From: a virus
Lineage: Duplodnaviria; Caudoviricetes
Virus record (IMG/VR): IMGVR_UViG_2974625740_000001
Span: 19,220-83,219 of that record
Reading direction: 5' to 3' (one strand)
DNA length: 64,000 nt
Shown: in pieces, positions 22,375-52,670 of the stretch
Layout: each line of letters starts with the position of its first letter
Numbering within the stretch: the first letter of the stretch is position 1
Translations under genes and position numbers: made by a program
Notes under the pieces: generated by a model
Databases searched by the model: none
Told to the model about the DNA's origin: nothing
Seen by the model: only the letters and a program-made list of their open reading frames with translations

Positions 22375-23307
22375 GTGGGCAAGCTGGATCAGCTGCTCGA
22401 CCAGGGCGACATCTGGGTTGACAAGAACGAGGTCATCCACCAGATCGAAGCGATGGACGGCCGGTACGCGCTCAACGTGTACAACTGGCTGAAGTCCCGC
22501 GCGATGCAGATCGGCTTTCACTACGCCCTCAACCTCGCGGGCATGCGCCTGCCGGACGAGGACACCGTGGCTTACCTGCACGTCACCGACGCCATCGAGC
22601 GTGAGCAGGAGCGCATCAGCAACGACCCGGAAGGGTGGATCAAGGACAAGCCGCTGATGCGCGCACTCATCGCGCGAGTGGCGGTCGACCGGATCACCCG
22701 TGACCAGGCTGGCTACATCCCGCCGACCTCGCCGCTCCCGGCCAAGTTCACCAAGTACGAGGCCAAGCCGTTCGAGCAGCAGCACGTGCGCGACCTCGAC
22801 ACCGAGCGGTTCGGCCAGCGACCGGGAGACGAGACCCGGGTCTTCCTGGTCATCGAACCGGGCGGGTATGACGACAAAGACACCATCCTCGCGTGCTTCG
22901 TCGGCAACCGGCTGGCCGCGTACCGGTTCGAGGTCGAGGCCGAGCTGTACGGCGGGTACGCCGAGGTCATCGAGCTGGACGACAACCACGCAGGCAAGAC
23001 CGAGGGCATGTACGGTCAGATCCGGCGGTACCGCGACCCGTGGACCGAGGTGGAGTACCGCACCCTGGTCAACCTGGAAAACGCGGCGATCATTCGCGAT
23101 GACGACGTCGTGACCCGCGTCCGCAACGACATCGACCCGACTATGGGCACGACCAAGGAGGCGGACGGCCTGCGCGGTCGGTATAACGTCTGGGTCAAGA
23201 CCACCGGCCCGGACCTCGACATCGACGCCGTCCGCAGCTACCACAGCAACGCCGTGAACACCATCCGGGCCAACGTGCTCGCCGACCTCACGAAGGATAT
23301 GCCGTGA
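22375..23307 (+). CDS. hypothetical protein
   Basis: RBS AAGGAGG; phage-like codon usage. Confidence 0.75.
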   Translation: MGKLDQLLDQGDIWVDKNEVIHQIEAMDGRYALNVYNWLKSRAMQIGFHYALNLAGMRLPDEDTVAYLHVTDAIEREQERISNDPEGWIKDKPLMRALIARVAVDRITRDQAGYIPPTSPLPAKFTKYEAKPFEQQHVRDLDTERFGQRPGDETRVFLVIEPGGYDDKDTILACFVGNRLAAYRFEVEAELYGGYAEVIELDDNHAGKTEGMYGQIRRYRDPWTEVEYRTLVNLENAAIIRDDDVVTRVRNDIDPTMGTTKEADGLRGRYNVWVKTTGPDLDIDAVRSYHSNAVNTIRANVLADLTKDMP

Positions 23308-25694
23308 TTCCTGCTCAGCACCCCGAGCTGAAGATCCCCGAGGGCTGGAACGCGACCCAGGTCGGAAACGACCTACTGCCCGACCTTCCGCCCGGGTGGC
23401 CGGTCGCGTGGGACACCGAGGGCTCCGGCCTGGCCGTGGACGGCGAGCCGTTCGTCACGGCCGGTCGGCCCGCGCACCCCGAGGCCCGCATCAGTGCGGT
23501 CTCCGTGTCCTTCCGCTGGCCCAACCCGGACGGTACCCCGGGCGAGATCGTCGACTTCGCGTGGCCGTTCGATCAGGGCCCCGTGCTGGGCAAGCCGGGT
23601 CACCCTCAGAAGGACCCCGTCACCGGTATCGTCACCTTCAAGCCGATCGACGAGGCCGACCAGGCGAAGATCCTGGCCCAGCACTCGAAGTCGCTCGGGT
23701 ACACCGTGACGCCCGAGATGGCCATGCCCAACCTGCACCCGGACGAGTACGGCGTGCTGGTGATGTGGCTCGACTTCCGGGACAACCTCGCCGCGCACAA
23801 CAGCGTTCACGACATGCACCAGGAGCGGGTCGGCCTGCGCGCCGACGCTGGCGGGTTCGGCGGACCCGAGGGCCTGTGGGCCTGGGACCCGGACACCGAA
23901 CCCGGCTCGCTGGCCAAGTCGATCATGGACGGCAGCACGCCCAAGCTCCACATGATGGAGCCGACCCGGGTACCGCTGTCGTTCTCGAAGTCGCGCCGGA
24001 ACATCTGGTGCACCATGGTCGTGCAGAAGCAGGTCGTCGACCCGCTCCAGCCCGCTGCTCTCAAGCCGACTGCGCGTCGGCTGTGGGGTGACGACTCGAC
24101 CGACGAAGAGACCGCGCTGGCGGAGGAGCTGAAGCGCCAGGGGGTCGGCCTCACCAAGCGGTACGACCTGCTGCCTTGGTGCGGTGCGGTCGGCGTCTAC
24201 GCGGCCAAGGACACCAACCTGTGCTACCGGCTCTGGGAGTACCAGGAGAACGTCGGCGAAGAGGGCCTGATCCCGAAGTATTGGGAGCTGGTCAACACCG
24301 AGATGGAGCTTCGCACGACCCTGTACCGGATGGAACGGCGCGGGGTGGCGTACAACGCCGAGGAGTCGTTCGCCGAGGGCAAGCGCGTCCGGGCGATCAA
24401 CGCGGAGAAGGCCCGCGAGCTGCCGTTCAACCCCTCCAAGCGACTGGAGGCCGCACGGTTCTACTTCGGCCCCGTCTGCCTGAACGAGATCAACCGCACC
24501 CGACGGAACGTCAAGCCGCAAGAGACCGTGTGGTCGGCGTTCTTCTGCGCCAAGTCGTGCACCGAGTGTGAGGGCAAGAACGGCCTGGGCCTGGAGCCGA
24601 CCGAGCGCACGCCGACCGGACAGCCCAAGCTCGACATCCCGGAGAAGATCCGGCTGGACGAGGCAGGCCACCCGTTCGCGGCCGAGCTGATGGCGTGGAC
24701 CAAGCGCCGTGACGCTGACTCGAAGTGGTACACCGGATGGGCCGCGCGGGTCGGCCGTGACGGTCGCATCCGGACCTCGTTCAAGCAGTGCAAGAACGAC
24801 AAGGAGCGCGCCGGAGCGGCCGAGGGCGGCACCAAGTCCGGCCGTCTCGCGGTCGGCCGCTGGCAGTGCCAGGCGATCCCGCACATCGAGTTGGTGCCCA
24901 AGGACGCCAAGCCGGTGCGGCCGATGATTGGCCAGGTCCCGCCGGGCACCATGGTCACCCGCTGGGACGGCACCAAGGAGCCCACCCCGGTTCGCCGCAT
25001 CCAGTTCGAGCACGACCTGTCGGCTGGTGAGGTCCGAGTGGTCACCGTGATCAGCGGTTCCACCAAGTTCTGGGACGCCCTCGACGCGGGCATGGACATG
25101 CACGCCCTCAACGCCAAGTCGCTGTTCGGCGTCGACGAGTCCCACCCCCAGTTCAAGTACCTGCGGTCGGCCGCCAAGCGCGGTACCTTCGGCATCATCT
25201 ACCTGGGTGGCGTGAAGGCCATCCAGACCCAGATGGAAGCCGCGTCCGGCATGAAGATGAAGACCACCGACGTCCAGAAGGCCAAAGACAACTTCTGGGC
25301 CGAGAACCCCGAGATCAAGGCGTTCAGCGACCGGGCCGTGCAGCGGGTCACCCGGTGGATGGGCGGACCTGGCTACCTCAAGATGCTGGACGGGTGGCGT
25401 CGCTGGTACGCGGTCGACGAGAAGACCGTCAGCGCGCCGAACCAGGTCATCCAGGGCAACCTCGCCCGAGCCATGATCTACTGGATGACGGCGGTCGAGC
25501 GCGAGGTCCCGGGGTGCCTTCTCCTCCAGGTGCACGACTCCCTCGTGACCGAGCACGACGACACGCCCGAGGGTCACGCCGAGGCCAAGCTGGTGAGCGA
25601 GATCGGTCAGCGCGTCTTCCAAGAGTACTTCAACGTGCGAGGCCGCGTGATGGACTTCGGCATCGCTCCCGACCGATGGGACGAGAAGGCATGA
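23304..25694 (+). CDS. family A DNA polymerase with 3'-5' exonuclease (candidate DpoZ)
   Basis: WDTEGSGL, AHNSVHD, YAAKDT (exo I-III); TKSGRL; HDLSAGEVR (motif A); RSAAKRGTFGIIY (motif B); QVHDSLV (motif C). Confidence 0.9.
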   Translation: MIPAQHPELKIPEGWNATQVGNDLLPDLPPGWPVAWDTEGSGLAVDGEPFVTAGRPAHPEARISAVSVSFRWPNPDGTPGEIVDFAWPFDQGPVLGKPGHPQKDPVTGIVTFKPIDEADQAKILAQHSKSLGYTVTPEMAMPNLHPDEYGVLVMWLDFRDNLAAHNSVHDMHQERVGLRADAGGFGGPEGLWAWDPDTEPGSLAKSIMDGSTPKLHMMEPTRVPLSFSKSRRNIWCTMVVQKQVVDPLQPAALKPTARRLWGDDSTDEETALAEELKRQGVGLTKRYDLLPWCGAVGVYAAKDTNLCYRLWEYQENVGEEGLIPKYWELVNTEMELRTTLYRMERRGVAYNAEESFAEGKRVRAINAEKARELPFNPSKRLEAARFYFGPVCLNEINRTRRNVKPQETVWSAFFCAKSCTECEGKNGLGLEPTERTPTGQPKLDIPEKIRLDEAGHPFAAELMAWTKRRDADSKWYTGWAARVGRDGRIRTSFKQCKNDKERAGAAEGGTKSGRLAVGRWQCQAIPHIELVPKDAKPVRPMIGQVPPGTMVTRWDGTKEPTPVRRIQFEHDLSAGEVRVVTVISGSTKFWDALDAGMDMHALNAKSLFGVDESHPQFKYLRSAAKRGTFGIIYLGGVKAIQTQMEAASGMKMKTTDVQKAKDNFWAENPEIKAFSDRAVQRVTRWMGGPGYLKMLDGWRRWYAVDEKTVSAPNQVIQGNLARAMIYWMTAVEREVPGCLLLQVHDSLVTEHDDTPEGHAEAKLVSEIGQRVFQEYFNVRGRVMDFGIAPDRWDEKA

Positions 25695-29996: not shown

Positions 29997-30026
29997 TTGC
30001 GCGGGCAGCAACTACCGTGCTACGAT
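29997..30026 (+). promoter_or_regulatory. dyad promoter, class II (purZ operon)
   Basis: TTGCGC-N18-TACGAT, TTG-N9-CAA. Confidence 0.75.
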
Positions 30027-30067
30027 GGGTATCCGGCGGTCACCCTGGCCGCTGGGGGAGGGCAAGC

Positions 30068-30538
30068 ATGAACCTGATCGGGACCCCCAGCAACGACGAC
30101 GTCCCCGCGTCGGACATGATGGACGAGATCCATCGTGTGAATCGGGCGATGTCGCAGCACCCCGACCCCGAGTGGGTGAACGTGACCGTGGGCTACCGGC
30201 TCTCGGGCTGTGACACGATCTTCCGCGAGGAGCCGCTGGTACAGCAGGCCCCCGAGGTCGCGGAGATCCTCGCGCGGCTGGCGCGACACGTGAAGCTGGC
30301 GTACGGCCAGATGTCCGCCGAGGTCACCACGCCGCACGGCAAGCGACGTCGCTTCCTCACGTTCGACATCGCCGACCTGCTGTACGTGGAGGTCATCACC
30401 GAGCCCCACGAGCCCGAGCACACGGACGAGGACAAGCGACGCGCCAAGCTGCACGGCTCCGCGCGCCGACGCACCTCGGACGGCCGGGTCACCCGCCAGC
30501 CGGACACCGAAATCGACATGACCGTCTTCGAGCAGTAA
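30068..30538 (+). CDS. hypothetical protein (first gene of the purZ operon)
   Basis: RBS GGAGG. Confidence 0.65.
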   Translation: MNLIGTPSNDDVPASDMMDEIHRVNRAMSQHPDPEWVNVTVGYRLSGCDTIFREEPLVQQAPEVAEILARLARHVKLAYGQMSAEVTTPHGKRRRFLTFDIADLLYVEVITEPHEPEHTDEDKRRAKLHGSARRRTSDGRVTRQPDTEIDMTVFEQ

Positions 30539-30580
30539 ACACCAACACCCGAGCAACAACGAAACAGAAGGGGGTTTGCC

Positions 30581-31696
30581 GTGGGTGGCAAGCTTCTGGT
30601 AGTGGCCGGAGCCCAGTACGGTTCCGAGGCCAAGGGACACGTCGCTGACCAGCTCAGCCGACCGGCCGTCGCGAGTGACAACGTGGTCGTCATGCGGGTG
30701 GCGGGACCGAACGCGGGTCACACCGTGTACGGCCTGTGCCCCAACGACTGCACCCCGGACGACTCGCACATGTCCGGCGAGAACTGGATCGGGCACCCGT
30801 GGCGGCTGCGCACCGTGCCGGTGGGGGCCGTCAGCAACCCCGATGCCGACCTGGTCATCGCCGCCGGTTCCGAGATCGACTACAACGTGCTCATGTCGGA
30901 GGTCGTCGCGCTAGACGCCGCCGGATACAAGGTCAGCCAGCGGCTGGTCATCGACACCCAAGCGACGCTGCTCGAACCGCGTCACATCCAGGAGGAGGTC
31001 GACGCCAAGATCCAGGAGCGTCTCGGCTCCACCGCCAAGGGCATCGGGGCGGCTCGCGCCGACCGCATCTGGCGACTGGCCAAGACCTGGGGTGACCACA
31101 TCCAAGACGAGGGCCGGATCGAGTCCGCCGAGTTCGTGCGGGGTCGGCTGGCCGACGGCGCTACGGTCGTGATCGAGGGGACCCAGGGGTTCGGCCTCGG
31201 GCTGCACGCGGGTCACTACCCCCAGTGCACCTCGTCCGACTGCCGCGCGATCGACTTCCTGTCCATGGCTGGCCTCAGCCCGTGGATGCGCGAGGTCGAC
31301 GAGTTCGGCGTCTGGCTGGCCGCCCGGGTCCGCCCGATCCGCGTGGCGGGCAACTCCGGCCCGATGAAGAACGAGACCACCTGGCAGGACCTGCGTCTGC
31401 CGGAGGAGTACACGACCGTGACCAAGAAGGTCCGGCGCGTGGGCGAGTGGGACGGCGAACTCGTCGCCCGCGCCGTGATCGCCAACGGCGGTGCTCCGGC
31501 CGTCCGGGTCGCGCTGACCATGGTCGACAGCATCTTCGACGAGATCCGCAACGCCGAGGGCATGTTCGACGACGTCGACTGGACGCACGAGGTTGCACCC
31601 CCGCTGCCCAAGATCGTGACCAACATCGAGCGCGAGATCGGGGCCCCGATCCGCATGATCACCACCTCGCCGACCACTGCCCTCTGGAGGCCGTGA
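30581..31696 (+). CDS. purZ: PurZ/PurZ0-type 2-amino-deoxyadenylosuccinate synthetase
   Basis: PurA fold (GPNAGHT, GSTAKGIGAA, EGTQG, TTVTKKVRRVG); Ser15 in GAQYGSEAKG replaces the PurA catalytic Asp; TMVD at the PurA TKLD site. Confidence 0.85.
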   Translation: MGGKLLVVAGAQYGSEAKGHVADQLSRPAVASDNVVVMRVAGPNAGHTVYGLCPNDCTPDDSHMSGENWIGHPWRLRTVPVGAVSNPDADLVIAAGSEIDYNVLMSEVVALDAAGYKVSQRLVIDTQATLLEPRHIQEEVDAKIQERLGSTAKGIGAARADRIWRLAKTWGDHIQDEGRIESAEFVRGRLADGATVVIEGTQGFGLGLHAGHYPQCTSSDCRAIDFLSMAGLSPWMREVDEFGVWLAARVRPIRVAGNSGPMKNETTWQDLRLPEEYTTVTKKVRRVGEWDGELVARAVIANGGAPAVRVALTMVDSIFDEIRNAEGMFDDVDWTHEVAPPLPKIVTNIEREIGAPIRMITTSPTTALWRP

Positions 31697-32958
31697 CCAT
31701 GGGTGCTGACTTCCACATCCACCTCCCCAAGCGGGACGACCCCGACCACTGCGGTCGCGAGGGGTGCGCCCGTCACTACAGCCACCCCGTCCACGCGCCC
31801 TCGGAGGCCCTCCGGAGGCTCTCGGAGCTGCCGCCGGACCTCCGCCCCCTGGAGCACCACGAGAGGGCTTCCGGAGCCCCCTACGTGCCCGCGCAGAGGG
31901 ACGCGGCCCCCGCCACCCACACCGGCCGTCCGGCCATGCACCCGGGAACTACCATCCGGGTGGCCAAGATGGGCGAGCCGCAGCGCGACGCCACCCCCGC
32001 CGAAATCGCCGCGTACCTCAAGGCGAATCCGCACATGAACCAGGACCCCGACCTGTACTGCTCGCACCCCAACGGGTTCGGCCCGAACGGGTGCCCGTGC
32101 GGCAAGGGCCAGCCGGGTGAGGACGACCCCGAGACCGTGCGCAACATCGATACGGGCGAGGACGTTCCCGCCACCCGCTGCCCCGAGTGTCAGGAGGCGG
32201 TGCCGACCGACCAGCTCCTGGCGCACATGCGCGACGTCGAGGCGTCCGATCAGGAGGACATCGACGCGATGGCCGAGCTGCTCGGTCTGCCGACGCTGCC
32301 GCCCCCCAACATGACCATCAACACGGTCGGGGAGGACTCGCCCATCTGGGGTCGTCCGATCGGCTGCCCGGTTCGCGAGAGGGAGCTGGCCGAGGGTGTG
32401 CCTACCTCGTGCCCGGGTCGTGCTGGCCACACCAAGGGAACCATCCGGCGGCATCTCCAGACCGTTCACTCGTGGAACGGCGACCAGTGGAACGACTGGG
32501 CCGAGTCGGTCAACTTCCTGGAGCTGCCCAGCGTCCCGAAGTCCATCCTCGACGAGATGGAGGCCCTGGGGAAGCGCGTCGACGCCTTCCTGGACCCTGA
32601 CATCACGATGGAGCAGATCATGTCCGACGCGCAGCAGAACGGCACCGAGATCCTGACCGAGTGGTGGCTGAAGCGAGCCGCCGCAGAGGCCGAGGGCGTG
32701 GTGCCCAAGTCGATCGAGTACGGGTCGAACAGCCTGATGCAGCTCGGTCGCAAGATGGCCCAGCTCCAGGGTCGCGAGGTGTCCGAGGCCGAGGCCCTGG
32801 AACTCGGCTGCTGGGCCAACTGCATCCAGAAGATCGAGCGCTGGACGGACGCCGTGATGCGGGGTGAGCGTCCCTCGGACGACACGATCCTCGACGCGGG
32901 GGTCTACCTCAAGATGGTCCAGCGCATCCGCGACTCGGGGTCCTGGCCCGGAGTCTGA
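31693..32958 (+). CDS. Zn-finger array fused to a C-terminal DUF1599/Nmad1-like (all-alpha NTP-PPase-like) domain
   Basis: Four Cys/His knuckles; KSIEYG...KIERW...DDTILDAGVYLKM. Confidence 0.55.
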   Translation: MTMGADFHIHLPKRDDPDHCGREGCARHYSHPVHAPSEALRRLSELPPDLRPLEHHERASGAPYVPAQRDAAPATHTGRPAMHPGTTIRVAKMGEPQRDATPAEIAAYLKANPHMNQDPDLYCSHPNGFGPNGCPCGKGQPGEDDPETVRNIDTGEDVPATRCPECQEAVPTDQLLAHMRDVEASDQEDIDAMAELLGLPTLPPPNMTINTVGEDSPIWGRPIGCPVRERELAEGVPTSCPGRAGHTKGTIRRHLQTVHSWNGDQWNDWAESVNFLELPSVPKSILDEMEALGKRVDAFLDPDITMEQIMSDAQQNGTEILTEWWLKRAAAEAEGVVPKSIEYGSNSLMQLGRKMAQLQGREVSEAEALELGCWANCIQKIERWTDAVMRGERPSDDTILDAGVYLKMVQRIRDSGSWPGV

Positions 32959-33030
32959 GTCAATCCGTCAATCCGAGCACAACCAACGGCGGGGGTGGCG
33001 GTGCTGCCCCCGCCCGGCTGGAGGGCCGAC

Positions 33031-33909
33031 ATGAAGAACGACCGACTGATCTACCTGGCACACCCGATCGACATGGGCCGCGCGTGCCCCGACCTGCTCA
33101 ACTACGCGGTCGGCGAACTCCAGGCCCTGGGCCTGCCGACGTACAACCCGCTGACCGCGTTCAACGTGAGCGGTCAGCCGTCTGGGGTGATCAACCGCGT
33201 GAACGAGGCCGCCATGCTCGCCAGCTCGGGGGCGGTGGCGTTCCTGCCGAAGGACACCCCGACCATCGGCACCCCGGCCGAGATCTCGTGGCTGATGACG
33301 CACGGCAAGCCGGTCCTGATCCTGACCGACATCGACACCTCATGGGTCGTCGCGGGCTGGCGCGGTCAGCTCTTCACCGAGGTGCACCATCTGGACGAGG
33401 AGGGCGTCAGCGCGGGCATCGACTGGCTGACCGACCGGATGTCGTACCTGGACGACAACCCCGAGTTCGGCGACGTCGAGCCGATCGTGTTCGAGAAGGC
33501 CAAGCAGGACGCCACTCTCCCGACCAAGGGGTACGCCGACGACGCCGGATACGACCTGTACGCCAGCGACGAGGTCGTCGTTCCGGCTCGGGGTCAGGCC
33601 ACGGTGCCGCTCGGCGTCAAGGTGGACATCCCCGAGGGTCTGTGGGCCCAGATCACTGGCCGAAGCTCGACGCTCAAGAACCTCAACCTGATGGTCGCCC
33701 CCACGGTCGGCGTGATCGACGAGGGGTACACGGGCGAGCTGTTCGCTCCCGTGGTCAGTAACGCGGACGAGGACGTGAAGATCGAGCGCGGGCAGCGGAT
33801 CGCCCAGCTCATCCTTCACGAGGCCCCGGGCCAGCGCTTCACGCCCGTGTGGGGCGTCGCCCGCCGGAAGGAGCGGGGAGCGAACGGCTTCGGATCTACC
33901 GGTCGCTGA
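33031..33909 (+). CDS. dut: nucleoside deoxyribosyltransferase-like domain fused to a trimeric dUTPase
   Basis: IYLAHP...GTPAEI...GKPV (NDT/DNPH1-like); AGYDL, GRSS, GVIDEGYTGE, RIAQL, RGANGFGSTG (dUTPase motifs 1-5). Confidence 0.85.
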   Translation: MKNDRLIYLAHPIDMGRACPDLLNYAVGELQALGLPTYNPLTAFNVSGQPSGVINRVNEAAMLASSGAVAFLPKDTPTIGTPAEISWLMTHGKPVLILTDIDTSWVVAGWRGQLFTEVHHLDEEGVSAGIDWLTDRMSYLDDNPEFGDVEPIVFEKAKQDATLPTKGYADDAGYDLYASDEVVVPARGQATVPLGVKVDIPEGLWAQITGRSSTLKNLNLMVAPTVGVIDEGYTGELFAPVVSNADEDVKIERGQRIAQLILHEAPGQRFTPVWGVARRKERGANGFGSTGR

Positions 33910-33919
33910 CCGCACCCGC

Positions 33920-33955
33920 CACGGCCCCCACCCAGCGCACAGGGTGGGGGCCGTG
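33920..33955 (+). terminator. stem-loop terminator of the purZ operon
   Basis: cacggcccccaccc / gggtgggggccgtg. Confidence 0.65.
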
Positions 33956-34001
33956 CGCTGTCTTCCGCCACCACGCGCCACCCCTGTGCGCTCTTGTGCC
34001 G

Positions 34002-34031
34002 TTGCGGAGGGCGCAATTACCGTGGTAGTAC
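34002..34031 (+). promoter_or_regulatory. dyad promoter (weak -10)
   Basis: TTGCGG-N18-TAGTAC, TTG-N9-CAA. Confidence 0.45.
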
Positions 34032-34057
34032 AACTCCCGACCGGAGGTTTGAGCACC

Positions 34058-34249
34058 GTGGTTCTGAACGTTGACGACTGGGTGGAGACAAAAAACGGCA
34101 ACATCGCGTTGGTGGTCGCTCGCAAGAGCCGACGCGTGGTCACCCTGTACACGATCGAAGATCACGAGCTGCACGAGGACGTCAGCGTCGACGTGATCAG
34201 CGGGTGTTTTCCGAACGTGTACAGGTTGCGCAACGCGGCCCCCGTATGA
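34058..34249 (+). CDS. hypothetical protein
   Basis: GTG with RBS GGAGG. Confidence 0.55.
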   Translation: MVLNVDDWVETKNGNIALVVARKSRRVVTLYTIEDHELHEDVSVDVISGCFPNVYRLRNAAPV

Positions 34250-34255
34250 TTTAAT
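34226..34255 (+). promoter_or_regulatory. promoter, class I -10
   Basis: TTGCGC-N18-TTTAAT; CAA half-site absent. Confidence 0.55.
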
Positions 34256-34336
34256 CGCCGATCGGATCCCGCTTGTCCCAACGGCAACAGGGTGGTACAC
34301 TTGTGCCCAGTTGCAAGAGACCTGGAGGGCTCCCCG

Positions 34337-34582
34337 GTGGTTACCGCTGTGATTGTACTGGCGACGTTGATCGCTCTCGTACTCATCGTCATGGGTTTCG
34401 TGTCGGTGTTTCGCGAGCAGACCATGCGCACGCCCTGGTTTTACTGGACCTGGGCGGTCGTCGCCGTCCTGATCATGTCGATGCTGATCGACCTGCCGAT
34501 GTGGGTCAGGGTCGCCAACTTCGTCGTCCTGCTGGCGTCCGCCGTCCTGTGGACCCGGGACATCAAGGAGGTCGCCCGATGA
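34337..34582 (+). CDS. membrane protein (3 TM)
   Basis: RBS GGAGG; hydrophobic segments. Confidence 0.65.
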   Translation: MVTAVIVLATLIALVLIVMGFVSVFREQTMRTPWFYWTWAVVAVLIMSMLIDLPMWVRVANFVVLLASAVLWTRDIKEVAR

Positions 34583-34878
34583 GCGACGTTCAGCAGCGGA
34601 TCTTTGAGGACATCCGCAACGAGAGAGCGGCCCAAGACCTCAAGTGGGGCAAGCAGATGCACCCCAACGGCACGTCGATCCGGTTCAAGCCGATGGCCGA
34701 CGCTGCCCGGAACGCCACCCGCAAGGCCGACGCGAACAACCAGCAGACGTGGACCAACATCCTGCGCGAGGAGTTCTGGGAGGCCCTGTCGGAAACCGAC
34801 CGCGCGGCCCTGCGCGCCGAGCTGATCCAGGTCGGTGCCGTGGTCGTCGCGTGGGTCGAGTGCCTCGACGAGAGCTGA
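34579..34878 (+). CDS. MazG-like nucleotide pyrophosphohydrolase
   Basis: ERAAQDLKWG...WTNILREEFWE...ELIQVGAVVVAW EE..E/E helix pattern. Confidence 0.7.
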   Translation: MSDVQQRIFEDIRNERAAQDLKWGKQMHPNGTSIRFKPMADAARNATRKADANNQQTWTNILREEFWEALSETDRAALRAELIQVGAVVVAWVECLDES

Positions 34879-34958
34879 CCGCCACCCCCCCCTGACGCCC
34901 CCTCACCCAAATTCCCGCGCTCCGGTCCGGGTGAGGGGGCTCACGCTTGCCCGGGTGA

Positions 34959-34988
34959 TTGCGCTGCGAGCAAGTCCCATGGTAGGAT
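34959..34988 (+). promoter_or_regulatory. dyad promoter, class II (purB operon)
   Basis: TTGCGC-N18-TAGGAT, TTG-N9-CAA. Confidence 0.75.
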
Positions 34989-35011
34989 AAGCTCGGAATA
35001 AGGAGGTGCAC

Positions 35012-35374
35012 ATGCACCGTTGGGAATACGCCGTCGGCCACCAGAGGCTCGACGACACGTGGACCAACGACACGGACCCGGCCACGTTCGAAGTCGCGCG
35101 CCGTGATCTGATCATCCAGCAGATCCAGCACGGTGACGAGGACTGGGCACACGATCTGCGCGTCATCAAGCGCGGTGACCACCAGCTCGACTGGACCCCG
35201 GTGTACGACCACGCGGCCGAGTTGCTGGTGGAGGTCCTGGAGGGCGTCCGGCTCGACTTCGCCACGATCGGCTCGGGGATCGTCCAGGGCAGCGACGTCG
35301 CCCGGATCTTCAAGAAGCGTGCCCAGGTCCTTCGTAACACCCTGCCCAACCAGAACCAGGAGTACGACTCGTGA
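35012..35374 (+). CDS. hypothetical protein
   Basis: RBS AAGGAGG. Confidence 0.7.
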   Translation: MHRWEYAVGHQRLDDTWTNDTDPATFEVARRDLIIQQIQHGDEDWAHDLRVIKRGDHQLDWTPVYDHAAELLVEVLEGVRLDFATIGSGIVQGSDVARIFKKRAQVLRNTLPNQNQEYDS

Positions 35375-35964
35375 CGTACCATCACTACATCAAGCTCATG
35401 AGAGACGCGTCGGTCCCGCTCGACAACGTCATCCATCGGCTGACGGACGAGGGCCACGCCCTCACCCTCCGCCGGACGCAGGTCACGTTCGACCAGGCCA
35501 ACATCTTCGTCACGCCGCATCCGGACGACCGGGACGTCGTTTTCGGCGTGTACATCGAGGAGTTCAGCAAGGCCGGATGGGCGTACGGGTCGCAGACGGC
35601 CCCCGCCAGCGAGGACCCCGCGCGCCCCGTGATCTCGATGTCGTTCGGGCACCCGCGCACCAAGACCCGGCTGGGTGAGCGTCCGCCGATCCGGCCCCGG
35701 GCCATCGGGTTCGAGATCCCGATGCCGGACCCGTCGCTGCCGATCACCACGGACCTGATCGAGTACTACGCCCAGCGCGCGGCCGACATCACCCGGGGCC
35801 TGATGGCGCAGCAGGTCGTCGACGAAGAGGGCAAGATGCCCGGCACCCCGGGCCAGGGCGGACCGCAGTTCAGGTCGCCCGACTGGCAGCCCACCGTGAC
35901 CAAGGTCGAGCCCAGGCCGCTGAACGAGATCTTCAACGACGAGGACGAGGAGGACGACGCGTGA
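35371..35964 (+). CDS. hypothetical protein
   Basis: GTGA overlap; acidic tail. Confidence 0.7.
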   Translation: MTYHHYIKLMRDASVPLDNVIHRLTDEGHALTLRRTQVTFDQANIFVTPHPDDRDVVFGVYIEEFSKAGWAYGSQTAPASEDPARPVISMSFGHPRTKTRLGERPPIRPRAIGFEIPMPDPSLPITTDLIEYYAQRAADITRGLMAQQVVDEEGKMPGTPGQGGPQFRSPDWQPTVTKVEPRPLNEIFNDEDEEDDA

Positions 35965-36068
35965 ACGTGCTGGCCGCGTTCGCCATCAGCCTGGCGGGGT
36001 TGGGGTTCGCCCTGGCCCTGCTGGGCTGGCACGGATGGAAGTTTCTCGCACCCCAAGGAGCGTGCTAA
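35961..36068 (+). CDS. 35-aa membrane peptide
   Basis: GTGA overlap; stop abuts the purB start. Confidence 0.5.
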   Translation: MNVLAAFAISLAGLGFALALLGWHGWKFLAPQGAC

Positions 36069-37442
36069 GTGCAAACCGAACTCGACCGATACACCACCCC
36101 CCAGATGGACACCATCTGGTCACCGGACTGGAAGCTCCGGCGGTGGGCCGAGATCGAGCTGGCCGCTGCGGAGGCCCTCGGTGCCCCCTCGGAGGCCCTC
36201 GCGCAGATCAGCCGGGCATCGGTCCCGTCGGCGCAGGCCGTGGCCACGGAGGAGGCCACGACGCGCCACGACGTGATCGCCTTCCTGAACCTCTGGCGCA
36301 CGGGCATGGGCCCGGAGGGTCGGGCCTGGTCGCACAAGGGCCTGACCAGCTCGGACGTCGTCGACACCGCGAACGCCCTCCGCATGAAGGCCAGCACCGA
36401 CGCCATCCGCGTGAACCTGGGTCGGCTGTCCAAGGCGGTCGGCCAGAACGCCCTCCTGTACAAGGACGCGGTCCGGGTCGGTCGCACCCACGGTCAACAC
36501 GCGGAGGTCACAACGTGGGGGTGGCGGCTGGCCGTTTCGTTCTACGACCTTCAGCGCGCCGAGCGGCGGCTGTCGATGCTGGCCGAGCTGTACGAGGTCG
36601 GCAAGCTGTCGGGACCGGTCGGCGACTACAAGTCGATGACCCCGGCGGCTGAGCTGACCGCGCTTCAGGGCCTGGGCCTGCGACCGGCCGGAGCCACCAC
36701 CCAGGTGGTCACCCGGGACGTCTACGTCGACTACCTGCACGCTCTCGCGCAGATCGCCAACGTGGTCGAGTCGCTGGCGCTGGAGATCCGGCTGTCCTCG
36801 CGGTCCGAGGTCGCCGAGATGCGCGAGGGCTTCAGCTCCGGCCAACGCGGTTCGTCGGCGATGCCGCACAAGCGGAACCCGATCGGGTCGGAACAGCTCT
36901 GCGGACTCGCCCGGCTGGTGCGGGCTCAGGTGGAACCGGTCGCGCAGGGGGTGGCGTTGCACCACGAGCGCGACATCTCGCACTCGTCGGTCGAGCGGGT
37001 CGCGTTGTCCACCGCCAGCCGCGTGGTCGACTACATGCTCGAAACCGCCACCGCCCTCGTTAACAACCTGCGGGTCGACGTCGACCGGATGCGCGCGAAC
37101 GTGGTCGATAACCCGAGCCTGCTCAGCTCGCTGATCAAGAACGCGCTGACCGAGCAGCACAACATCGACCCGCACTGGGCGTACGAGGTCGTGTTCTACG
37201 GGTTCGAGGACTGGGGTCGGCCGGACCACGGCGGGTTCGACACGCTGGCCGACGCCCTGGCCGACGCGTGGTACCGGCTGGCCGAGACGCAGCACCTCGA
37301 CGCGCACGTCCCGGGCCTCGACTTCGAGGACCTGGTGGCCATCGGGGACGACATCACGACGCTGACCGGCGGGACTGACCCCGTGTTCAAGGAGATCGAG
37401 TTCCTGATCAGCGACCAGAAGGGCGACCCGTCCGCCTGGTGA
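36069..37442 (+). CDS. purB: adenylosuccinate lyase
   Basis: TRHDV, HKGLTSSDVVD, GRTHGQHA, GSSAMPHKRNP fumarate-lyase signature, HERDISHSSVER. Confidence 0.92.
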   Translation: MQTELDRYTTPQMDTIWSPDWKLRRWAEIELAAAEALGAPSEALAQISRASVPSAQAVATEEATTRHDVIAFLNLWRTGMGPEGRAWSHKGLTSSDVVDTANALRMKASTDAIRVNLGRLSKAVGQNALLYKDAVRVGRTHGQHAEVTTWGWRLAVSFYDLQRAERRLSMLAELYEVGKLSGPVGDYKSMTPAAELTALQGLGLRPAGATTQVVTRDVYVDYLHALAQIANVVESLALEIRLSSRSEVAEMREGFSSGQRGSSAMPHKRNPIGSEQLCGLARLVRAQVEPVAQGVALHHERDISHSSVERVALSTASRVVDYMLETATALVNNLRVDVDRMRANVVDNPSLLSSLIKNALTEQHNIDPHWAYEVVFYGFEDWGRPDHGGFDTLADALADAWYRLAETQHLDAHVPGLDFEDLVAIGDDITTLTGGTDPVFKEIEFLISDQKGDPSAW

Positions 37443-37455
37443 CCCCCGAACACAG

Positions 37456-37490
37456 CGGAACCCCCCGCCACTCCCCGGCGGGGGGTTCCG
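37456..37490. terminator. bidirectional stem-loop
   Basis: cggaaccccccgcc / ggcggggggttccg between convergent genes. Confidence 0.7.
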
Positions 37491-46567: not shown

Positions 46568-46597
46568 TTGTCGAAGGAGCAATCCCCATGATAAGAT
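46568..46597 (+). promoter_or_regulatory. dyad promoter, class II (transfer module)
   Basis: TTGTCG-N18-TAAGAT, TTG-N9-CAA. Confidence 0.7.
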
Positions 46598-46650
46598 GGT
46601 AATCCACCCGGTGCGGAAGCACCGGCCCTAAACTGATAGAGGTGAATCCG

Positions 46651-47922
46651 ATGGCGGAGAGGAAGCAGGCTCCCGTGAGTGACCCGGTTGAGCCGCGCAC
46701 CCGCCGGGGTCGCCGCAAGCTGGACGACGTTGCGGCCGAGGCAGCGCGCACCGCTGCCCGTACCACCGGCAAGGCCACCGCTGCCAAGACGGCGGCACGC
46801 ACCAAAACGGCCCTGCTCACCGAGCAGGAGAAGCAGGCGCAGGTCATCGCGCGACAGAAGGAGCGCAAGGCCAAGGAGCGCAAGGAGCGGAACGCACGGC
46901 GCTGGGCCGACTTCAAGGTTAAGGCCGCGTCGTTCGGTCGCACCGCGATGATCGTCGGTCCCATCACCGCGCCGATGTCGATCGCCTGGACCGGCCAGAT
47001 CGGGTTCGCCCAGGGCATTCTCAAGTGGCCGTTCGCTGGCGGCGTGATGTACGCGGCGGCTTACGAGCTGTCGATCATCTTCTGCGCCTGGATGTACCAC
47101 GAGGCACGCAAGGACGGCGACAGCGGGACGTACTACCGCGCGCTTACCTGGATGTTCGCCGTGGCCAACGGCGTGCAGCAGTGGTGGCACTGGGCCGACG
47201 ACTGGAAGGCAACGCCCCGATCGGTCACGTACTCGGTCATGACGGCGGTCGGCATCCTGATCTGGGAGGCGTACGCCAAGCTGATCCACCGCCGGAAGCT
47301 GCGCGCGGACGGCCGGATCTCGAACCCGCGACCCCGGATCAACCTGGTGCGCTGGCTGCGCTACCCCCGGATCTCGTTCACCGCGTGGAGCGGATCGATC
47401 CGGCACAGCTTCGACGACTTCAACGACATGTGGATCTGGGCCGAGGTCGAGCGCGAGGGCAAGCAGACCCGACGCAACAAGGTCAAGGAGCTGCGCGCGG
47501 AGGTCAAGGACCTGAAGGCGCAACTGGCCGACCTGACCGACCCGAAGAGGGCCAAGGTGATCAAGGCCGAGGTCGAGCGCGTAGTGACCCCGGACCCGGC
47601 ACCCGTCGCGCCGGACCCCAAGCCCATCGACCCCGGACCCCGCCCGGAGCTGGAGGCCCCCAAGGAGGCCGACCCCGGATCTCCGGAGGCCAACCCGGGT
47701 GACGCCGATCACAGCTTCGAGCCGACCGACGCCGAGATCCAGGCTCTTCAGGAGATGGTCGAGGCCGACCAGCGGCTGAACCGCGAGAACGTCATGGCGT
47801 ACATGCGGGACGACGACAACCGCCACCGCCTGGGCCAGCCGGAGGGCATCGCGACCAAGCGCGCTGCTCTGGTTGCCAAGTGGGGACGGGACAACTACTC
47901 GAAGATCAAGGCGGTTAGCTGA
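46651..47922 (+). CDS. DUF2637-like (Spd/transfer) membrane protein with a coiled coil
   Basis: 4 TM core (YAAAYELSII...WMFAVANGV...EAY); RPRINLVRWLRYP; Pro-rich linker. Confidence 0.65.
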   Translation: MAERKQAPVSDPVEPRTRRGRRKLDDVAAEAARTAARTTGKATAAKTAARTKTALLTEQEKQAQVIARQKERKAKERKERNARRWADFKVKAASFGRTAMIVGPITAPMSIAWTGQIGFAQGILKWPFAGGVMYAAAYELSIIFCAWMYHEARKDGDSGTYYRALTWMFAVANGVQQWWHWADDWKATPRSVTYSVMTAVGILIWEAYAKLIHRRKLRADGRISNPRPRINLVRWLRYPRISFTAWSGSIRHSFDDFNDMWIWAEVEREGKQTRRNKVKELRAEVKDLKAQLADLTDPKRAKVIKAEVERVVTPDPAPVAPDPKPIDPGPRPELEAPKEADPGSPEANPGDADHSFEPTDAEIQALQEMVEADQRLNRENVMAYMRDDDNRHRLGQPEGIATKRAALVAKWGRDNYSKIKAVS

Positions 47923-48200
47923 TGCGCACGTTCTACTGGCTCGCGGTGTTCGGGACGGCCGAGGTCGTCCCGGTTCCGCAACCCGTCCCCCAGGGTGACG
48001 ACCCGCTTTCGATCAACCAGGTGTTCGGGCAGCGCGTGACCCGCTCGGGCACCGTGGACATCGCCGAGGACCAGCCGACGGACGAGGTCATCAAGGGCAT
48101 CGTCGCGGGGTGCAAGGGCAGCGGGGGCGTCCACGCCGACGCTCTGTTGCTCGGGATCACGCTTTTGCCGAACGTCCTGGTTCCCGGTTACGGAACGTAA
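47922..48200 (+). CDS. hypothetical protein of the transfer module
   Basis: Stop/start overlap. Confidence 0.6.
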   Translation: MRTFYWLAVFGTAEVVPVPQPVPQGDDPLSINQVFGQRVTRSGTVDIAEDQPTDEVIKGIVAGCKGSGGVHADALLLGITLLPNVLVPGYGT

Positions 48201-48282
48201 GTGTTGCACGCCACAGTCACAGCCGTGACACCCCCCTCCTGTCGGCTTCCTTGGCCGGTGGGAGGGGGTCCCGAGGACCCGA

Positions 48283-48318
48283 GTCACAATCACAGTCACG
48301 ATCACAGTCACAGTCGAC
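48283..48318. repeat. 6-bp tandem repeat (RTCACR) x6
   Basis: gtcaca atcaca gtcacg atcaca gtcaca gtcgac. Confidence 0.8.
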
Positions 48319-48340
48319 GATAACAGGAGGTGACAGACAG

Positions 48341-50065
48341 ATGGCGGACGCCAAGGCAACAGAAGCGGAAAAGGTCGACACGTCGGCTGCGCCGGAGCCC
48401 GAGAAGGTATCTCCCGGGGCCTCGGAGGGCGCGGCCGGTCCTGAGGCCCCCGCCACTGCCCCCAGTGGCTCCCGTGGGCCGTCCCGGGCCAGGACGAGGG
48501 GCCTCCCGGCGGCACCCACAGCCGTAGCCACGGTGAACACCATCGCGGTCACCAGCGCTGCGGCTGCCAAGGCAGGCACTCCGGCGCTGGGCGTCGCGGT
48601 TGCGGTTGCCGAGGTCGTTGGCCTGGCCGCTCTCGGCCTCAGCCAGCGTCGCAAGGTCAAGCGCAACAACCGCGCTCGGCAGTTGCGCGAGCAGGCTCGC
48701 CAGCGCGGTCTCGGTCAGTCGCCGACGTCGCTCCGCTCGGGTCGCTGGACGCCCTCGGGTTCCGGGTCCGGCGGTGGGTCGCGCCGAAACAACGGGTCGG
48801 GATCGACCAACAACCGGGGCGGTGGCGGCACTCGACCGACCGGGCCGAGGTCTGTCAATACCGGGTCCCGATCGACCCCCACGCGGTCCGGGTCTGGAGG
48901 TCCGGGCACCGGAGGAGGTCGGCACCGCCGGAACAACGGGTCCGGATCGGGCGGAGGTCGAGGTCTGCTCGACCGCAAGCGCCGGAACGGATCGGGGTCC
49001 GGGTCCGGATCGGGCGGATCGACCTCCCCCAGGTCGAGGCGGCTGAATCGGCAGAATCAGAGGTCGGGCAACAACGGATCTGGATCGAACCGACACCAGA
49101 ACCGGACCCCCACGCTGTTCAGCAAGCCGGGTCAGCCGAGTCGGCTCCGGCAGGCGATCGGACCCCGACCCGCTGGCCAGCGTCGAGGTGGCCTGATCCG
49201 GAACGGCAATGGTCAGCGACGCCGACCTTTCGCCGCGATCGGCCGAGGGGTCGGTCACGTCCGCAACGGTGGACGTCGGATCGGGCGCGGTGTGGTTCGG
49301 GCTGCTGGCCGGATCAACCGAGCCGCGAGGGCGGTCGGCCGAGGTGCGCGCAGGGTCTGGAACGCTCGGCCGACCAGGGCCGCGCGACGTTGGACCATCG
49401 GCAGTTTGCGGAGGGCCTGGGGCATCCTGGGTCCGGCGGTCGGCGCGGTTCTGGCTGGCGTTGGCGCAGCGGTCCGGCGTCGAGGTTGGCGAGGTATCTG
49501 GACCGCGATGACCACCACCTGGGGGCGACTGCGCGCCAGGTGGGGACCGAAGAACGGCAAGCACGCAAAGGCGGCAGCAGCAGCAACGCCACCGCCCCCG
49601 GTAACACCCGCAACAACGATCAAGCGACCGGCTCACATGATCGGCGCAACTCCGTCCGCAACTGGCGGACCGACTGGACTCACTGGAGGTAACAGCATGG
49701 CTATGGCACGAATCATCGAGCAGTCGCGTGAGATGGTCGGCGCGGCGATGATGTACAACCCCGACGAGGGGATGATGCAGATCGGCAACGACATCGCGTC
49801 GATCGAAGAGGTCCTGCTCAACGTCGCCACCGCGATTCAGGCGATGACCCGGCAGGTGCAGGAGGGCGAGACCCCGATGCACCCTGCGATCGTGGACAAG
49901 GTCAAGGCCATCCACGGTGGCATCGTCAACCTGTCGCAGGAGGCGAAGGAGCTGAAGCCCGCGTTCGAGAACCTGCACAACGTGGACATCAACCGCATTC
50001 GCAACCCGCGACCGGGCGAGCAGCGGTGGGACCTGTCCGCCAACCGCGACTACGTCGGCCGATAG
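48341..50065 (+). CDS. TraA-like plasmid transfer protein
   Basis: RBS AGGAGG; TM segment, Gly/Ser/Arg-rich disordered region, helical C-domain (YNPDEGM...H.VDINRIRNPR..E..WD) as in Streptomyces plasmid/AICE tra operons. Confidence 0.6.
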   Translation: MADAKATEAEKVDTSAAPEPEKVSPGASEGAAGPEAPATAPSGSRGPSRARTRGLPAAPTAVATVNTIAVTSAAAAKAGTPALGVAVAVAEVVGLAALGLSQRRKVKRNNRARQLREQARQRGLGQSPTSLRSGRWTPSGSGSGGGSRRNNGSGSTNNRGGGGTRPTGPRSVNTGSRSTPTRSGSGGPGTGGGRHRRNNGSGSGGGRGLLDRKRRNGSGSGSGSGGSTSPRSRRLNRQNQRSGNNGSGSNRHQNRTPTLFSKPGQPSRLRQAIGPRPAGQRRGGLIRNGNGQRRRPFAAIGRGVGHVRNGGRRIGRGVVRAAGRINRAARAVGRGARRVWNARPTRAARRWTIGSLRRAWGILGPAVGAVLAGVGAAVRRRGWRGIWTAMTTTWGRLRARWGPKNGKHAKAAAAATPPPPVTPATTIKRPAHMIGATPSATGGPTGLTGGNSMAMARIIEQSREMVGAAMMYNPDEGMMQIGNDIASIEEVLLNVATAIQAMTRQVQEGETPMHPAIVDKVKAIHGGIVNLSQEAKELKPAFENLHNVDINRIRNPRPGEQRWDLSANRDYVGR

Positions 50066-50078
50066 GAGGCTACGCACC

Positions 50079-52175
50079 ATGGGTAAGGTAATCGACTGGG
50101 ACGCTGGGCACGGTCCCGTCACGGGCACGCTCAACGCGGCGTATTCAGCGCTGGGCGTTGCTGCGGTCGGCCATGAGGCCGGGTTGCCTCCCGTCTGGGC
50201 CCTGGGTGCATCCGCTGTGGGTGCGCTCGGGGCCGGAATCGCGGGGGCATCAGCCGAGGAGCCGCTTAGCAAGGGCGCGATCCTTGCGCGCACGGGCGGC
50301 TGGCTGGCGGGTGGCGGCTGGGTGACCTACGCGCTGACAACCGACACGATCTGGTCGTGGTCGGTCATCGGACCGCTGGCGGCGTGTACGTGCGGTTTCG
50401 CCAGCCTGGCCGGAGCGATCGGCCGGAAGCGACGTCGCCAGCTTGAGCGCGAAGAGCGCGCGTTCATGGCGCTGACCCGCACGCGCATCGGCCTGGAGTG
50501 GGTCGCGCGCATTGAGCGGGTGTGCGGCATCAAGGGGTGCGTGGTCGAGGGCGTCGAGCAGTGGGTCGACGAGAACGGCAACGAGACCGGGGCCGGATAC
50601 GACCTCGAAATCCTGATGCCCGAGGGCGGTGCGAACTGGCGTCAGCTCGCCGGAGCCAACGAGCAGTTGGCCTCAGACGCCGACCTGCCCGAGGGGTGTG
50701 GCGTCGAGGTGTTCAGCGGCACCTCGCGCCGTCGCGCCATCATCAAGGTGCAGCTGGTCAACAACATGCTGAGCGAAGACCAGGAGGTGCCGCTGGATGC
50801 GTCGCCGCTCGACTTCAACGATTTCTTCGACATCGGCAAGCTGCGTGACGGCGGTGTCGCCAAGATCCACATTCGCGAGTTCTCCGCGATGCTGGTCGGC
50901 GCGAAGCGAACCGGTAAGACGAACCAGCTCCTTGCGATCATCACACGACTGCTCCGGATGCCCAACCTGCGGGTGTGGGTGATCGACTTCAACGGGGGTG
51001 GCGTCGCCCTTCAGTGGCTGCGCGCGTGGGAAGCCCTCGGGAAGCCTGGACGGCCTCCGATCGACTGGGTGGCCGCCGACGTCGACGAGGCCGCCCGGAT
51101 GGCCAACGCGGCTGTCCGCGTGGCCAAGGCACGCAAGGTCGAGTACCAGCAGCTCATGGCTGAGGCTGACACCGACCTGCTGCCGCTTACCGCCGAAATC
51201 CCGGGCATCCTCATCATCACCGACGAGGGGGCCGAGGTCTACGCGAACCCCAAGCACCGGGTTGCAGCTGAGCCGATGAAGGAGGTCCTTCGGATCGCTG
51301 GCGCGTCCGGCGTGAACCAGCTCAACTGCTTCTTGCGAGGCACCGCCGACACGACGGGCGACACGATCATCAAGAGCCAGTCGACCGTGCGCATCGGCAT
51401 GCGGATGTCGGACGAGCAGGAGATGTCGTACCTACTCGGCTGGCGTTCCGGCGTCACCCCGGCGGACATGCCCGAGCAGGGGTTCGGCGCGCTGTCGATG
51501 GACGAGGCCAAACCGGCGCAGATCTTCAGGGGGTGGCGGGTCAAGCCGAGCCACATCAAGTGGTTCGTCGAGCACACGGCCGGATATCGCCAGAACGAGG
51601 CGTTCGACGAGGTCAGCTTGAAGGCGATGGGCGAGGTCTACGCCACCCGCTGGGAGCGTGCCGAGTTCGTGTTCAACTCGGCTGTCCCCGCTCCCCAGGT
51701 GACCACGACGATGGTCCTCGACAAGGACGACGAGGGCGAGAGCTGGGGTGCCAGCGTCGACCCCAAGCAGGCGTCCGAGAACCTCTCGAAGGCCATCGAA
51801 GAGGCCAAGGCGGCACGGGGCACCCCGGAGCAGTCCGAGGCCGACGAATGGGCCTCCCTGGTGCAGGGCGGGGGTCTCTCCGACCTGGAGCAGTACTCGT
51901 TCGACAACCCCCCGCCGGAGCCGCCCCCGATCGACCCGGACGACCCCCAGTCGGACGAGCAGGAGGCCAACGACATCAGGGACGTCGCGGTCGGCATGGT
52001 CAAGGCCATGGGGTCCGAGGGAATCACCGTGGCTGAGGTCGTCAAGGCCCTTCAGCGTCAGTACGGTGACGACGCCCCGGTCCGCGAGACCGTGTTCCGC
52101 TGGTTCAAGAAGGACGACCGGATCGAGAAGATCGGCCACGGTCGATACGCCTGGAAGCAGGAGGAGGGCAACTGA
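50079..52175 (+). CDS. traB: TraB-like FtsK/SpoIIIE conjugative dsDNA translocase
   Basis: N-terminal TM helices, Walker A GAKRTGKT, Walker B IITDE, RIGMR, C-terminal winged helix (VRETVFRWF..IEKIGHGRY). Confidence 0.8.
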   Translation: MGKVIDWDAGHGPVTGTLNAAYSALGVAAVGHEAGLPPVWALGASAVGALGAGIAGASAEEPLSKGAILARTGGWLAGGGWVTYALTTDTIWSWSVIGPLAACTCGFASLAGAIGRKRRRQLEREERAFMALTRTRIGLEWVARIERVCGIKGCVVEGVEQWVDENGNETGAGYDLEILMPEGGANWRQLAGANEQLASDADLPEGCGVEVFSGTSRRRAIIKVQLVNNMLSEDQEVPLDASPLDFNDFFDIGKLRDGGVAKIHIREFSAMLVGAKRTGKTNQLLAIITRLLRMPNLRVWVIDFNGGGVALQWLRAWEALGKPGRPPIDWVAADVDEAARMANAAVRVAKARKVEYQQLMAEADTDLLPLTAEIPGILIITDEGAEVYANPKHRVAAEPMKEVLRIAGASGVNQLNCFLRGTADTTGDTIIKSQSTVRIGMRMSDEQEMSYLLGWRSGVTPADMPEQGFGALSMDEAKPAQIFRGWRVKPSHIKWFVEHTAGYRQNEAFDEVSLKAMGEVYATRWERAEFVFNSAVPAPQVTTTMVLDKDDEGESWGASVDPKQASENLSKAIEEAKAARGTPEQSEADEWASLVQGGGLSDLEQYSFDNPPPEPPPIDPDDPQSDEQEANDIRDVAVGMVKAMGSEGITVAEVVKALQRQYGDDAPVRETVFRWFKKDDRIEKIGHGRYAWKQEEGN

Positions 52176-52660
52176 TGGAGATCAACGCGTTGTTGGCCGT
52201 GTTCGTCGCTCTGTTCGTCGGGCACAGCGTGGCCGACCACTGGGTGCAGACCTCGTGTCAGGCCGTTGAGAAAGCGTACGGAGCCCCGGGCACGTCGAGG
52301 GAGCTTCGACGTCGCGGACAGCTCGCTTGCCTGCGGCACGTCCTCACGCTGACGGCCACGAAGTGGCTGCTCGTGCTGGTCGTCGTGGTCCCGTTTCACG
52401 TGAAACTGAACTGGTGGCAGGCCCTCGCTGGCCTCACCCTCGACGCCGTGTCGCACTACTGGGCCGACCGTCGATGGACCCTGGAGGAACTGGCGCGGTA
52501 CGTCGGCAAGGGCGAGTTCTACGACCAGGGCACGGACCTGGTCGACTGCGCTGGCGAGAAGCGTCCCCACATCGGCACCGGTCGGTACGCGCTCGACCAG
52601 AGCTGGCACCACCTGTGGTTGCTGATCGGCGCGTGGATCGCCACGGTCCCACTGCCCTGA
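52175..52660 (+). CDS. DUF3307-like membrane protein
   Basis: HSVADHWVQT, SHYWADRR, LDQSWH. Confidence 0.7.
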   Translation: MEINALLAVFVALFVGHSVADHWVQTSCQAVEKAYGAPGTSRELRRRGQLACLRHVLTLTATKWLLVLVVVVPFHVKLNWWQALAGLTLDAVSHYWADRRWTLEELARYVGKGEFYDQGTDLVDCAGEKRPHIGTGRYALDQSWHHLWLLIGAWIATVPLP

Positions 52661-52670
52661 CCCGACACAC

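Follow-up and report, generated by a model that had tools for sequence, protein, structure and literature searches.

Phages of the PurZ0 branch of Z-genome synthesis, with Wayne and Ghobes as the reference phages that the literature regards as Z-DNA phages, were reported to use DutZ and DmtZ and not DatZ and MazZ (Poubanne et al., NAR 2026, PMC12884076). DutZ is a dUTPase homologue which converts dATP and dGTP to the respective dNMP with an approximately tenfold preference for dATP, and DmtZ releases adenine from dAMP and additionally transfers deoxyribose-5-phosphate to Z. The route from dATP via dAMP to free adenine was demonstrated biochemically for both reference phages, and in Wayne DmtZ and DutZ are fused as one protein of 307 amino acids (aa). 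In the survey of the same study dutZ was present in 98 of 98 PurZ0 genomes, dmtZ in 85 and a fusion of both in 77, and DatZ and DUF550 were described as features of the PurZ branch, PurZ0 phages being as a published rule without either of them (PMC12884076). The substitution of a dUTPase for DatZ/MazZ in Wayne-like phages is also cited as prior work in a 2025 preprint (10.1101/2025.10.22.683976). Here, a stretch of 64,000 nucleotides (nt) of the IMG/VR record IMGVR_UViG_2974625740_000001, in the following called the window, was analysed with respect to a putative Z-genome region at positions 29997-37490, in which purZ0, the gene of a companion protein, a DmtZ-DutZ fusion gene and purB are located. 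The window comprises bases 19220-83219 of one 83,219-bp phage contig with a CheckV completeness of 100 and has a GC content of about 66%. Positions refer to the window, and the genes, promoter-like sites and hairpins described between 23304 and 37489 lie on the + strand.

Judged from its sequence, the region most probably belongs, as an ordinary member, to the PurZ0-type Z-genome system published for actinobacteriophages, a reading to which we assign a probability of about 85%. The family scores of PurZ, the dUTPase and PurB all exceed the curated cut-offs, so that three proteins named in an earlier note on this stretch, PurZ0, an NDT-dUTPase and PurB, were borne out by profile searches. The new lead from the region is the PurZ0-linked domain of the companion protein, which belongs to a family without annotation.

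The protein encoded at 30581-31696 (371 aa) is PurZ0, the 2-amino-adenylosuccinate synthetase. It reached 374.2 bits with the PurZ family NF038379 of NCBIfam (curated cut-off 300) and matched phrog_1211 with an E-value of 9e-82. At the position of the catalytic Asp13 of PurA, where Ser or Gly is the hallmark of PurZ, a Ser is present within the P-loop motif GAQYGSEAKG, which aligns with GGQFGSEAKG in Wayne and DLQFGSTGKG in phiVC8. Within the TMVD motif the Asp is kept as in Wayne (TMLD), phiVC8 having NFCN at this position. Identities amount to 45-54% with seven PurZ0 proteins compared to 32% with the PurZ of phiVC8, and by these values and the TMVD Asp the protein is assigned to the PurZ0 subgroup, on the side of Wayne and Ghobes and not of phiVC8 and S-2L; a phosphate-donor preference unlike that of PurZ is a further mark of this subgroup. 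An insertion of about 17 residues which contains Cys (CPNDC...) is located near residues 53-72 in the window protein and its close relatives, and is absent from Wayne, Ghobes and phiVC8.

The DmtZ-DutZ fusion (NDT and dUTPase) is encoded at 33031-33909 with a length of 292 aa, or of 304 aa if translation began at an alternative start upstream, at 32995. Matches were obtained to PF00692 (6e-27) and PF05014 (3.8e-5), and the score with TIGR00576 was 108.4 bits, above the cut-off of 102.55. The protein aligns over its full length with the fusions of Wayne and Glenn, and phmmer searches gave E-values of 6e-40 with Wayne gp53 and 7e-26 with Ghobes DutZ. The DutZ half shows the fold and motifs of a dUTPase and has the Dut proteins of PurZ0 phages as its closest relatives. 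In the DmtZ half, Y6, D12, P57, N77, G99, E103 and W124 of Ghobes DmtZ are all kept, as are the dUTPase motifs in the other half. A four-sequence alignment showed the catalytic triad Tyr6/Asn77/Glu103 together with Asp12, Pro57 and Trp124 (Ghobes numbering) to be conserved in the window protein, Spocter and Wayne; the roles of these residues were derived by mutagenesis or modelling in PMC12884076. Searches of a phage collection with the DmtZ-like N-terminal domain matched PurZ0 phages only, namely 100 Arthrobacter, 6 Gordonia and 3 Streptomyces phages. For a survey of our own, 80 PurZ0 loci from IMG/VR were de-replicated at 65% PurZ identity to 26 lineages, 24 of which encode DutZ and 20 DmtZ.

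The whole 83,219-bp genome was searched with Pfam profiles. HD (PF01966), YfbR-like (PF12917) and HD_3 (PF13023) as well as DUF550/MazZ (PF04447), DUF5664 (PF18909) and MazG (PF03819) gave zero matches at E<=10, and the best match of phiVC8 DatZ among all six-frame open reading frames (ORFs) in phmmer with the option --max was an off-frame antisense ORF with an E-value of 0.18, which is noise. The claim that neither an HD-type DatZ nor a DUF550 protein is encoded therefore held for the complete genome, including the part outside the window. DatZ was likewise found in none of the 80 IMG/VR loci and none of the 26 lineages. DatZ would not be needed because DutZ and DmtZ would remove dATP, and PurZ0-branch phages normally lack it. 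In the earlier note an alternative route for excluding adenine had been proposed from the absence of DatZ. Adenine would indeed be excluded without DatZ, via the NDT-dUTPase fusion that was already on that reader's gene list, but this route is not new, having been published in PMC12884076. The question of DatZ-free Z-DNA synthesis was already answered experimentally in 2026, and the present locus adds little to it.

A Pol I (796 aa) is encoded at 23304-25694, for which the best family is a DpoZ family and which matches Wayne gp47 (3e-49) and Ghobes gp39 (3e-47) in phmmer, without a match to phiVC8 DpoZ. The DpoZ candidate placed upstream of the region in the earlier note is thereby found as a polymerase gene, but its scores lie below the DpoZ cut-offs, and it is regarded as a candidate PurZ0-type DpoZ and not as a member. 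PurB, the adenylosuccinate lyase, is encoded at 36069-37442 (457 aa) and exceeds the cut-off of the equivalog family TIGR00928 (335.2 versus 326.2 bits), with an E-value of 4e-36 for PF00206. PurB-like genes are also annotated in Ghobes-type and Spocter-type phages, and PurB was found in 5 of the 26 lineages. Among PurZ0 phage contigs the location of PurB (Lyase_1) varies: it is encoded 5′ of PurZ0, directly 3′ of the companion gene or at a distance of several kb downstream (contigs L013, L014, L078 and L084-L099), which suggests repeated acquisition or rearrangement. Guanylate kinase and nucleoside diphosphate kinase (NDK) were not found in the genome, and the annotation of Spocter is also without a nucleotide kinase. 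Hence, the steps from dZMP to dZTP depend on the host, and the description of the pathway as self-contained was overstated.

By analogy with the orthologues, the following pathway is proposed. The C-terminal half of the fusion, DutZ, would convert dATP into dAMP and likewise dGTP into dGMP. The N-terminal half, DmtZ, would cleave dAMP to adenine and deoxyribose-5-phosphate, and the sugar phosphate could be transferred to the free Z base; the predicted dAMP N-glycosidase and sugar-phosphate transfer activities of this domain follow those of its orthologues. PurZ0 would then condense dGMP with aspartate, and phage-encoded PurB would release fumarate to yield dZMP. Phosphorylation to dZTP would be carried out by guanylate kinase and NDK of the host, followed by incorporation of dZTP by the phage Pol I.

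Directly after purZ0, at 31699-32958, a companion protein of 419 aa is encoded, whose N-terminal region is rich in Cys and His and is followed by a helical domain at the C-terminus; if the GTG at 31693 served as the start instead, the gene would overlap the stop codon of purZ0. Ghobes gp51, which also follows PurZ0, is a homologue of the protein (E-value of 1e-25). The C-terminal domain of about 105 aa (32596-32955) shares 42% identity with the corresponding end of gp51, and its AlphaFold2 (AF2) model has four helices with a pLDDT of 91. No match to Pfam, PHROG or NCBIfam was found for the protein or the domain, and a PDB sequence search with the domain profile returned nothing meaningful. In a library of 1.8 billion proteins the domain family comprises 940 cluster representatives at E<=1e-3. 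Across 97 diverse members the invariant residues include K337, Y341, E368, K378, R381, D395, D399 and Y403 (protein numbering), a set which would suit a site for binding nucleotide and metal. The N-terminal part of about 300 aa (31699-32595) is abundant in Cys/His knuckles and varies in length within the family, with protein sizes of 419 aa in this phage, 437 aa in Spocter and 92-566 aa in other relatives; C2H2-type zinc-finger models (zf-Di19, zf-C2H2) are matched by a few members. Pfam scans of ten proteins with the domain at the N-terminus revealed no informative fusion partner.

The coupling of the domain to PurZ0 is close. In 78 of the 80 IMG/VR loci it shares the strand of PurZ0 and is encoded 12-930 nt downstream of it, and in the remaining two, which are located on Wayne-sized contigs, DUF5664 occupies this slot. 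After de-replication the domain was present in 25 of the 26 lineages (~96%), DUF5664 being present in the other one. The phage collection contained domain records from 18 Microbacterium, 6 Gordonia, 3 Streptomyces, 1 Curtobacterium and 1 Micrococcus phages, and for Microbacterium, Gordonia and Streptomyces these counts equal those of the PurZ-bearing records. None of the 105 Arthrobacter phages has the domain, and DUF5664-1 fills the slot there. Moreover, the domain was encoded directly 3′ of PurZ in all six metagenomic contexts sampled, the junctions of purZ0 and the companion gene are contiguous or overlapping, and one protein (P0107) is a single PurZ0-domain fusion of 485 aa, which occurs in two assembled records that are perhaps not independent samples.

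Two identities of the domain with known families were considered and found no support in profile searches. Membership in DUF5664 had no support from Pfam searches of the protein and the genome, or from hhalign comparisons with Wayne gp51 and a 25-sequence DUF5664 alignment. The companion protein had been described as Nmad1-like; PF07659, which is Nmad1 (DUF1599) according to the literature, had no match in the genome (E<=10) or in 26 or 97 family members, and DUF1599 seed sequences sought in 401 Actinomycetota genomes were not found. The sole lead in this direction is a neighbouring cluster in the ESM Atlas (score 0.93), in which 14% of the members carry PF07659, and the Nmad1 label was not confirmed.

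Most likely, as far as its conservation and context indicate, the domain encoded after purZ0 contributes to the pathway as another functional component. We see roughly even odds that it acts as a dNTP pyrophosphohydrolase analogous to DUF5664-1, in the slot that DUF5664-1 has in the Arthrobacter phages. Slightly short of even odds is the more specific proposal that it represents a core component of the PurZ0 pathway which has so far gone undescribed, either as a new family of dATP/dGTP pyrophosphohydrolases replacing DUF5664-1/MazZ or as an obligate partner of PurZ0. That it binds PurZ0 as a subunit appears unlikely, and some other function still more so.

Several findings weigh against the assignment of the region and the enzymatic role proposed for the domain. 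The Z genome of this phage is predicted from sequence and the enzyme activities are taken from orthologues, and Pol I scores below the DpoZ cut-offs, with 191.9 versus 350 bits for its best family NF038381 (phage_DpoZ_2) and 42.4 versus 500 bits for NF038380. For the domain, hhalign of trimmed cores with DUF5664 gave an E-value of 0.37 (positive control 4e-80), Pfam scans of the 97 family members detected no nucleoside triphosphate pyrophosphohydrolase (NTP-PPase) family, and for the AF2 model Foldseek and VIA-align found nothing but generic helical-bundle matches. A non-enzymatic domain, serving PurZ0 as a structural or regulatory subunit, for instance as a tether to DNA or the replisome via the zinc-finger-like N-terminus, would fit the contiguous or overlapping genes, the one natural fusion, the variable N-terminal extensions with their occasional C2H2-type matches and the lack of an assignable catalytic family. 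The Lys, Arg, Glu and Asp residues found to be invariant are, however, typical of a nucleotide- and metal-binding site, and the domain and the enzyme DUF5664-1 exclude each other from the same slot, so this reading is judged unlikely. The cluster could also serve partial substitution or remodelling of the nucleotide pool only, with A not fully replaced by Z. A Z content of this phage and its close relatives is predicted from their genes, and Pol I is a longer and divergent relative of the characterised DpoZ below the family cut-offs. Nevertheless, the set of PurZ0, DmtZ-DutZ, PurB and Pol I is intact with its catalytic residues kept, the module is common to 26 lineages, and Wayne and Ghobes are counted among the Z-DNA phages, which renders incomplete replacement improbable.

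A cryptic non-HD dATPase, as a new adenine-exclusion enzyme besides or in place of DutZ/DmtZ, could be hidden among the three ORFans of the region or in the gp71-like protein, given that several ORFs of the three operons could not be placed in any family. The ORFans comprise a protein of 156 aa at 30068-30538, equivalent to Spocter gp65, without match in Pfam, PHROG or NCBIfam and in the phage collection found only in Spocter and Galactica, and two proteins of 120 and 197 aa encoded at 35012-35964 upstream of purB, which have no family match and occur only in Spocter, Keanu and Galactica, with 31-61% identity in the more distant two. Since they are confined to three or four closely related Streptomyces phages and diverge fast, they are poor candidates, and gp72, gp73 and gp65 were set aside as pathway parts on account of being lineage-specific ORFans. 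The gp71-like protein (99 aa, 34579-34878) is a putative all-alpha NTP-PPase. It matches phrog_2831, a family of unknown function, with an E-value of 1.6e-22, and its nearest named clusters in the ESM Atlas are MazG/PRA-PH (0.89-0.90), which its motifs resemble as well. The AF2 model has four helices (pLDDT of 91.6), Foldseek listed DCTPP1 and MazG within noise only and VIA generic helical matches, and no match in Pfam (PF03819 included), NCBIfam or PDB was obtained. Its homologs are widespread among phages with ordinary DNA. The label MazG-like in the earlier note, which probably referred to gp71, could therefore not be confirmed, and a further NTP-PPase-like protein said to lie upstream was not recovered by Pfam among the ORFs between 20.7 and 29.9 kb. 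As the characterised pair of DutZ and DmtZ already explains the removal of dATP, an additional enzyme of this kind is considered highly improbable, and assignment to the published PurZ0-type system is retained.

Promoter-like motifs precede the purZ0 operon (29997-30025, TTGCGC ... GCAA ... TG-TACGAT, with a GC-rich hairpin before it), gp69-gp71 (34002-34030) and the gp72-gp73-gp74-purB operon (34959-34987) as exact motif matches, and a second candidate promoter for gp69-gp71, TTGCGC-N17-TTTAAT, was read in the sequence at 34226. All four had been reported before and were found again. A GC-rich hairpin, read as an inverted repeat, is located at the end of the purB operon (37457-37489). A generic sigma-70 scan of the sequence yielded zero promoters, and the phage motif was found by direct search. 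The general form TTGCG-N6-GCAA-N4-C-TG-TA..A has 21 matches in the window (7861-59139, e.g. 22286 and 42794) compared to 0.02 expected by chance, and two classes of -10 elements, TAnnAT and TTTAA, were observed. This suggests a phage-wide transcription programme, in which a dimeric factor binding the TTGCG/CGCAA dyad may be involved. Since the motif is spread over the genome it does not mark a Z-specific regulon, and the operons cannot be called co-regulated in that sense.

The findings extend the PurZ0/DmtZ-DutZ system to large Streptomyces phages with a full-length PurB of their own. The companion domain is near-universal among PurZ0 loci and tightly coupled to PurZ0, and it is absent from the published pathway schemes examined. 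Should it turn out to be an enzyme or a subunit of PurZ0, heterologous production of Z-DNA based on PurZ0 might need this domain, and a revised minimal gene set of PurZ0-type Z genomes would be required.

The nearest relatives in GenBank are the Streptomyces phages Spocter (PQ114745), Keanu (MT723933) and Galactica (MT316461), whose PurZ proteins are 97.8%, 80% and 75% identical to that of the window. Their genomes are colinear with this phage, and the corresponding genes are annotated as PurA-like, dUTPase, PurB-like and Pol I. Protein identity with Spocter amounts to ~97% over the genome and 87-100% across the colinear region, and gene boundaries were adopted from its curated annotation. No difference of biological consequence from Spocter was seen; the companion proteins differ by indels (419 aa here, 437 aa in Spocter, 87% identity). 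At the position equivalent to 46568-52707 an FtsK-like DNA translocase is annotated in Spocter.

With the phages S-2L (cyanophage), phiVC8 (Vibrio) and SH-Ab 15497 (Acinetobacter) this phage would share the logic of forming dZMP from dGMP, depleting dATP and supplying dGMP. In those phages dATP is cleared by the HD-domain triphosphohydrolase DatZ and dGMP is provided by MazZ/DUF550, neither of which was found here. The companion protein resembles DUF5664-1 of Wayne (PF18909, a dATP/dGTP diphosphohydrolase) in its slot after purZ0 and in combining a variable N-terminus with an all-helical C-terminal domain of about 100 aa. The distributions of both domains among PurZ0 phages are mutually exclusive, and membership in DUF5664 is not claimed, as neither sequence nor profile similarity was detected. 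Like Wayne (Arthrobacter) and Ghobes (Gordonia), the phage encodes PurZ0 together with a Pol I from that lineage and is without DatZ and DUF550 (PMC12884076). The gene order of Pol I, PurZ0, companion gene and DmtZ/DutZ is the same, DmtZ and DutZ form one fusion like that of Wayne, and with Ghobes-type phages it has a PurB-like gene in common. It differs from the Wayne/Ghobes cluster in several respects: at 83 kb the genome has twice the size, the host is Streptomyces, DUF5664-1 is missing, the companion protein has a Cys/His-rich N-terminal extension of about 300 aa, PurZ0 carries the Cys-containing insertion of about 17 residues, and PurB is encoded at full length (457 aa) in the same region.

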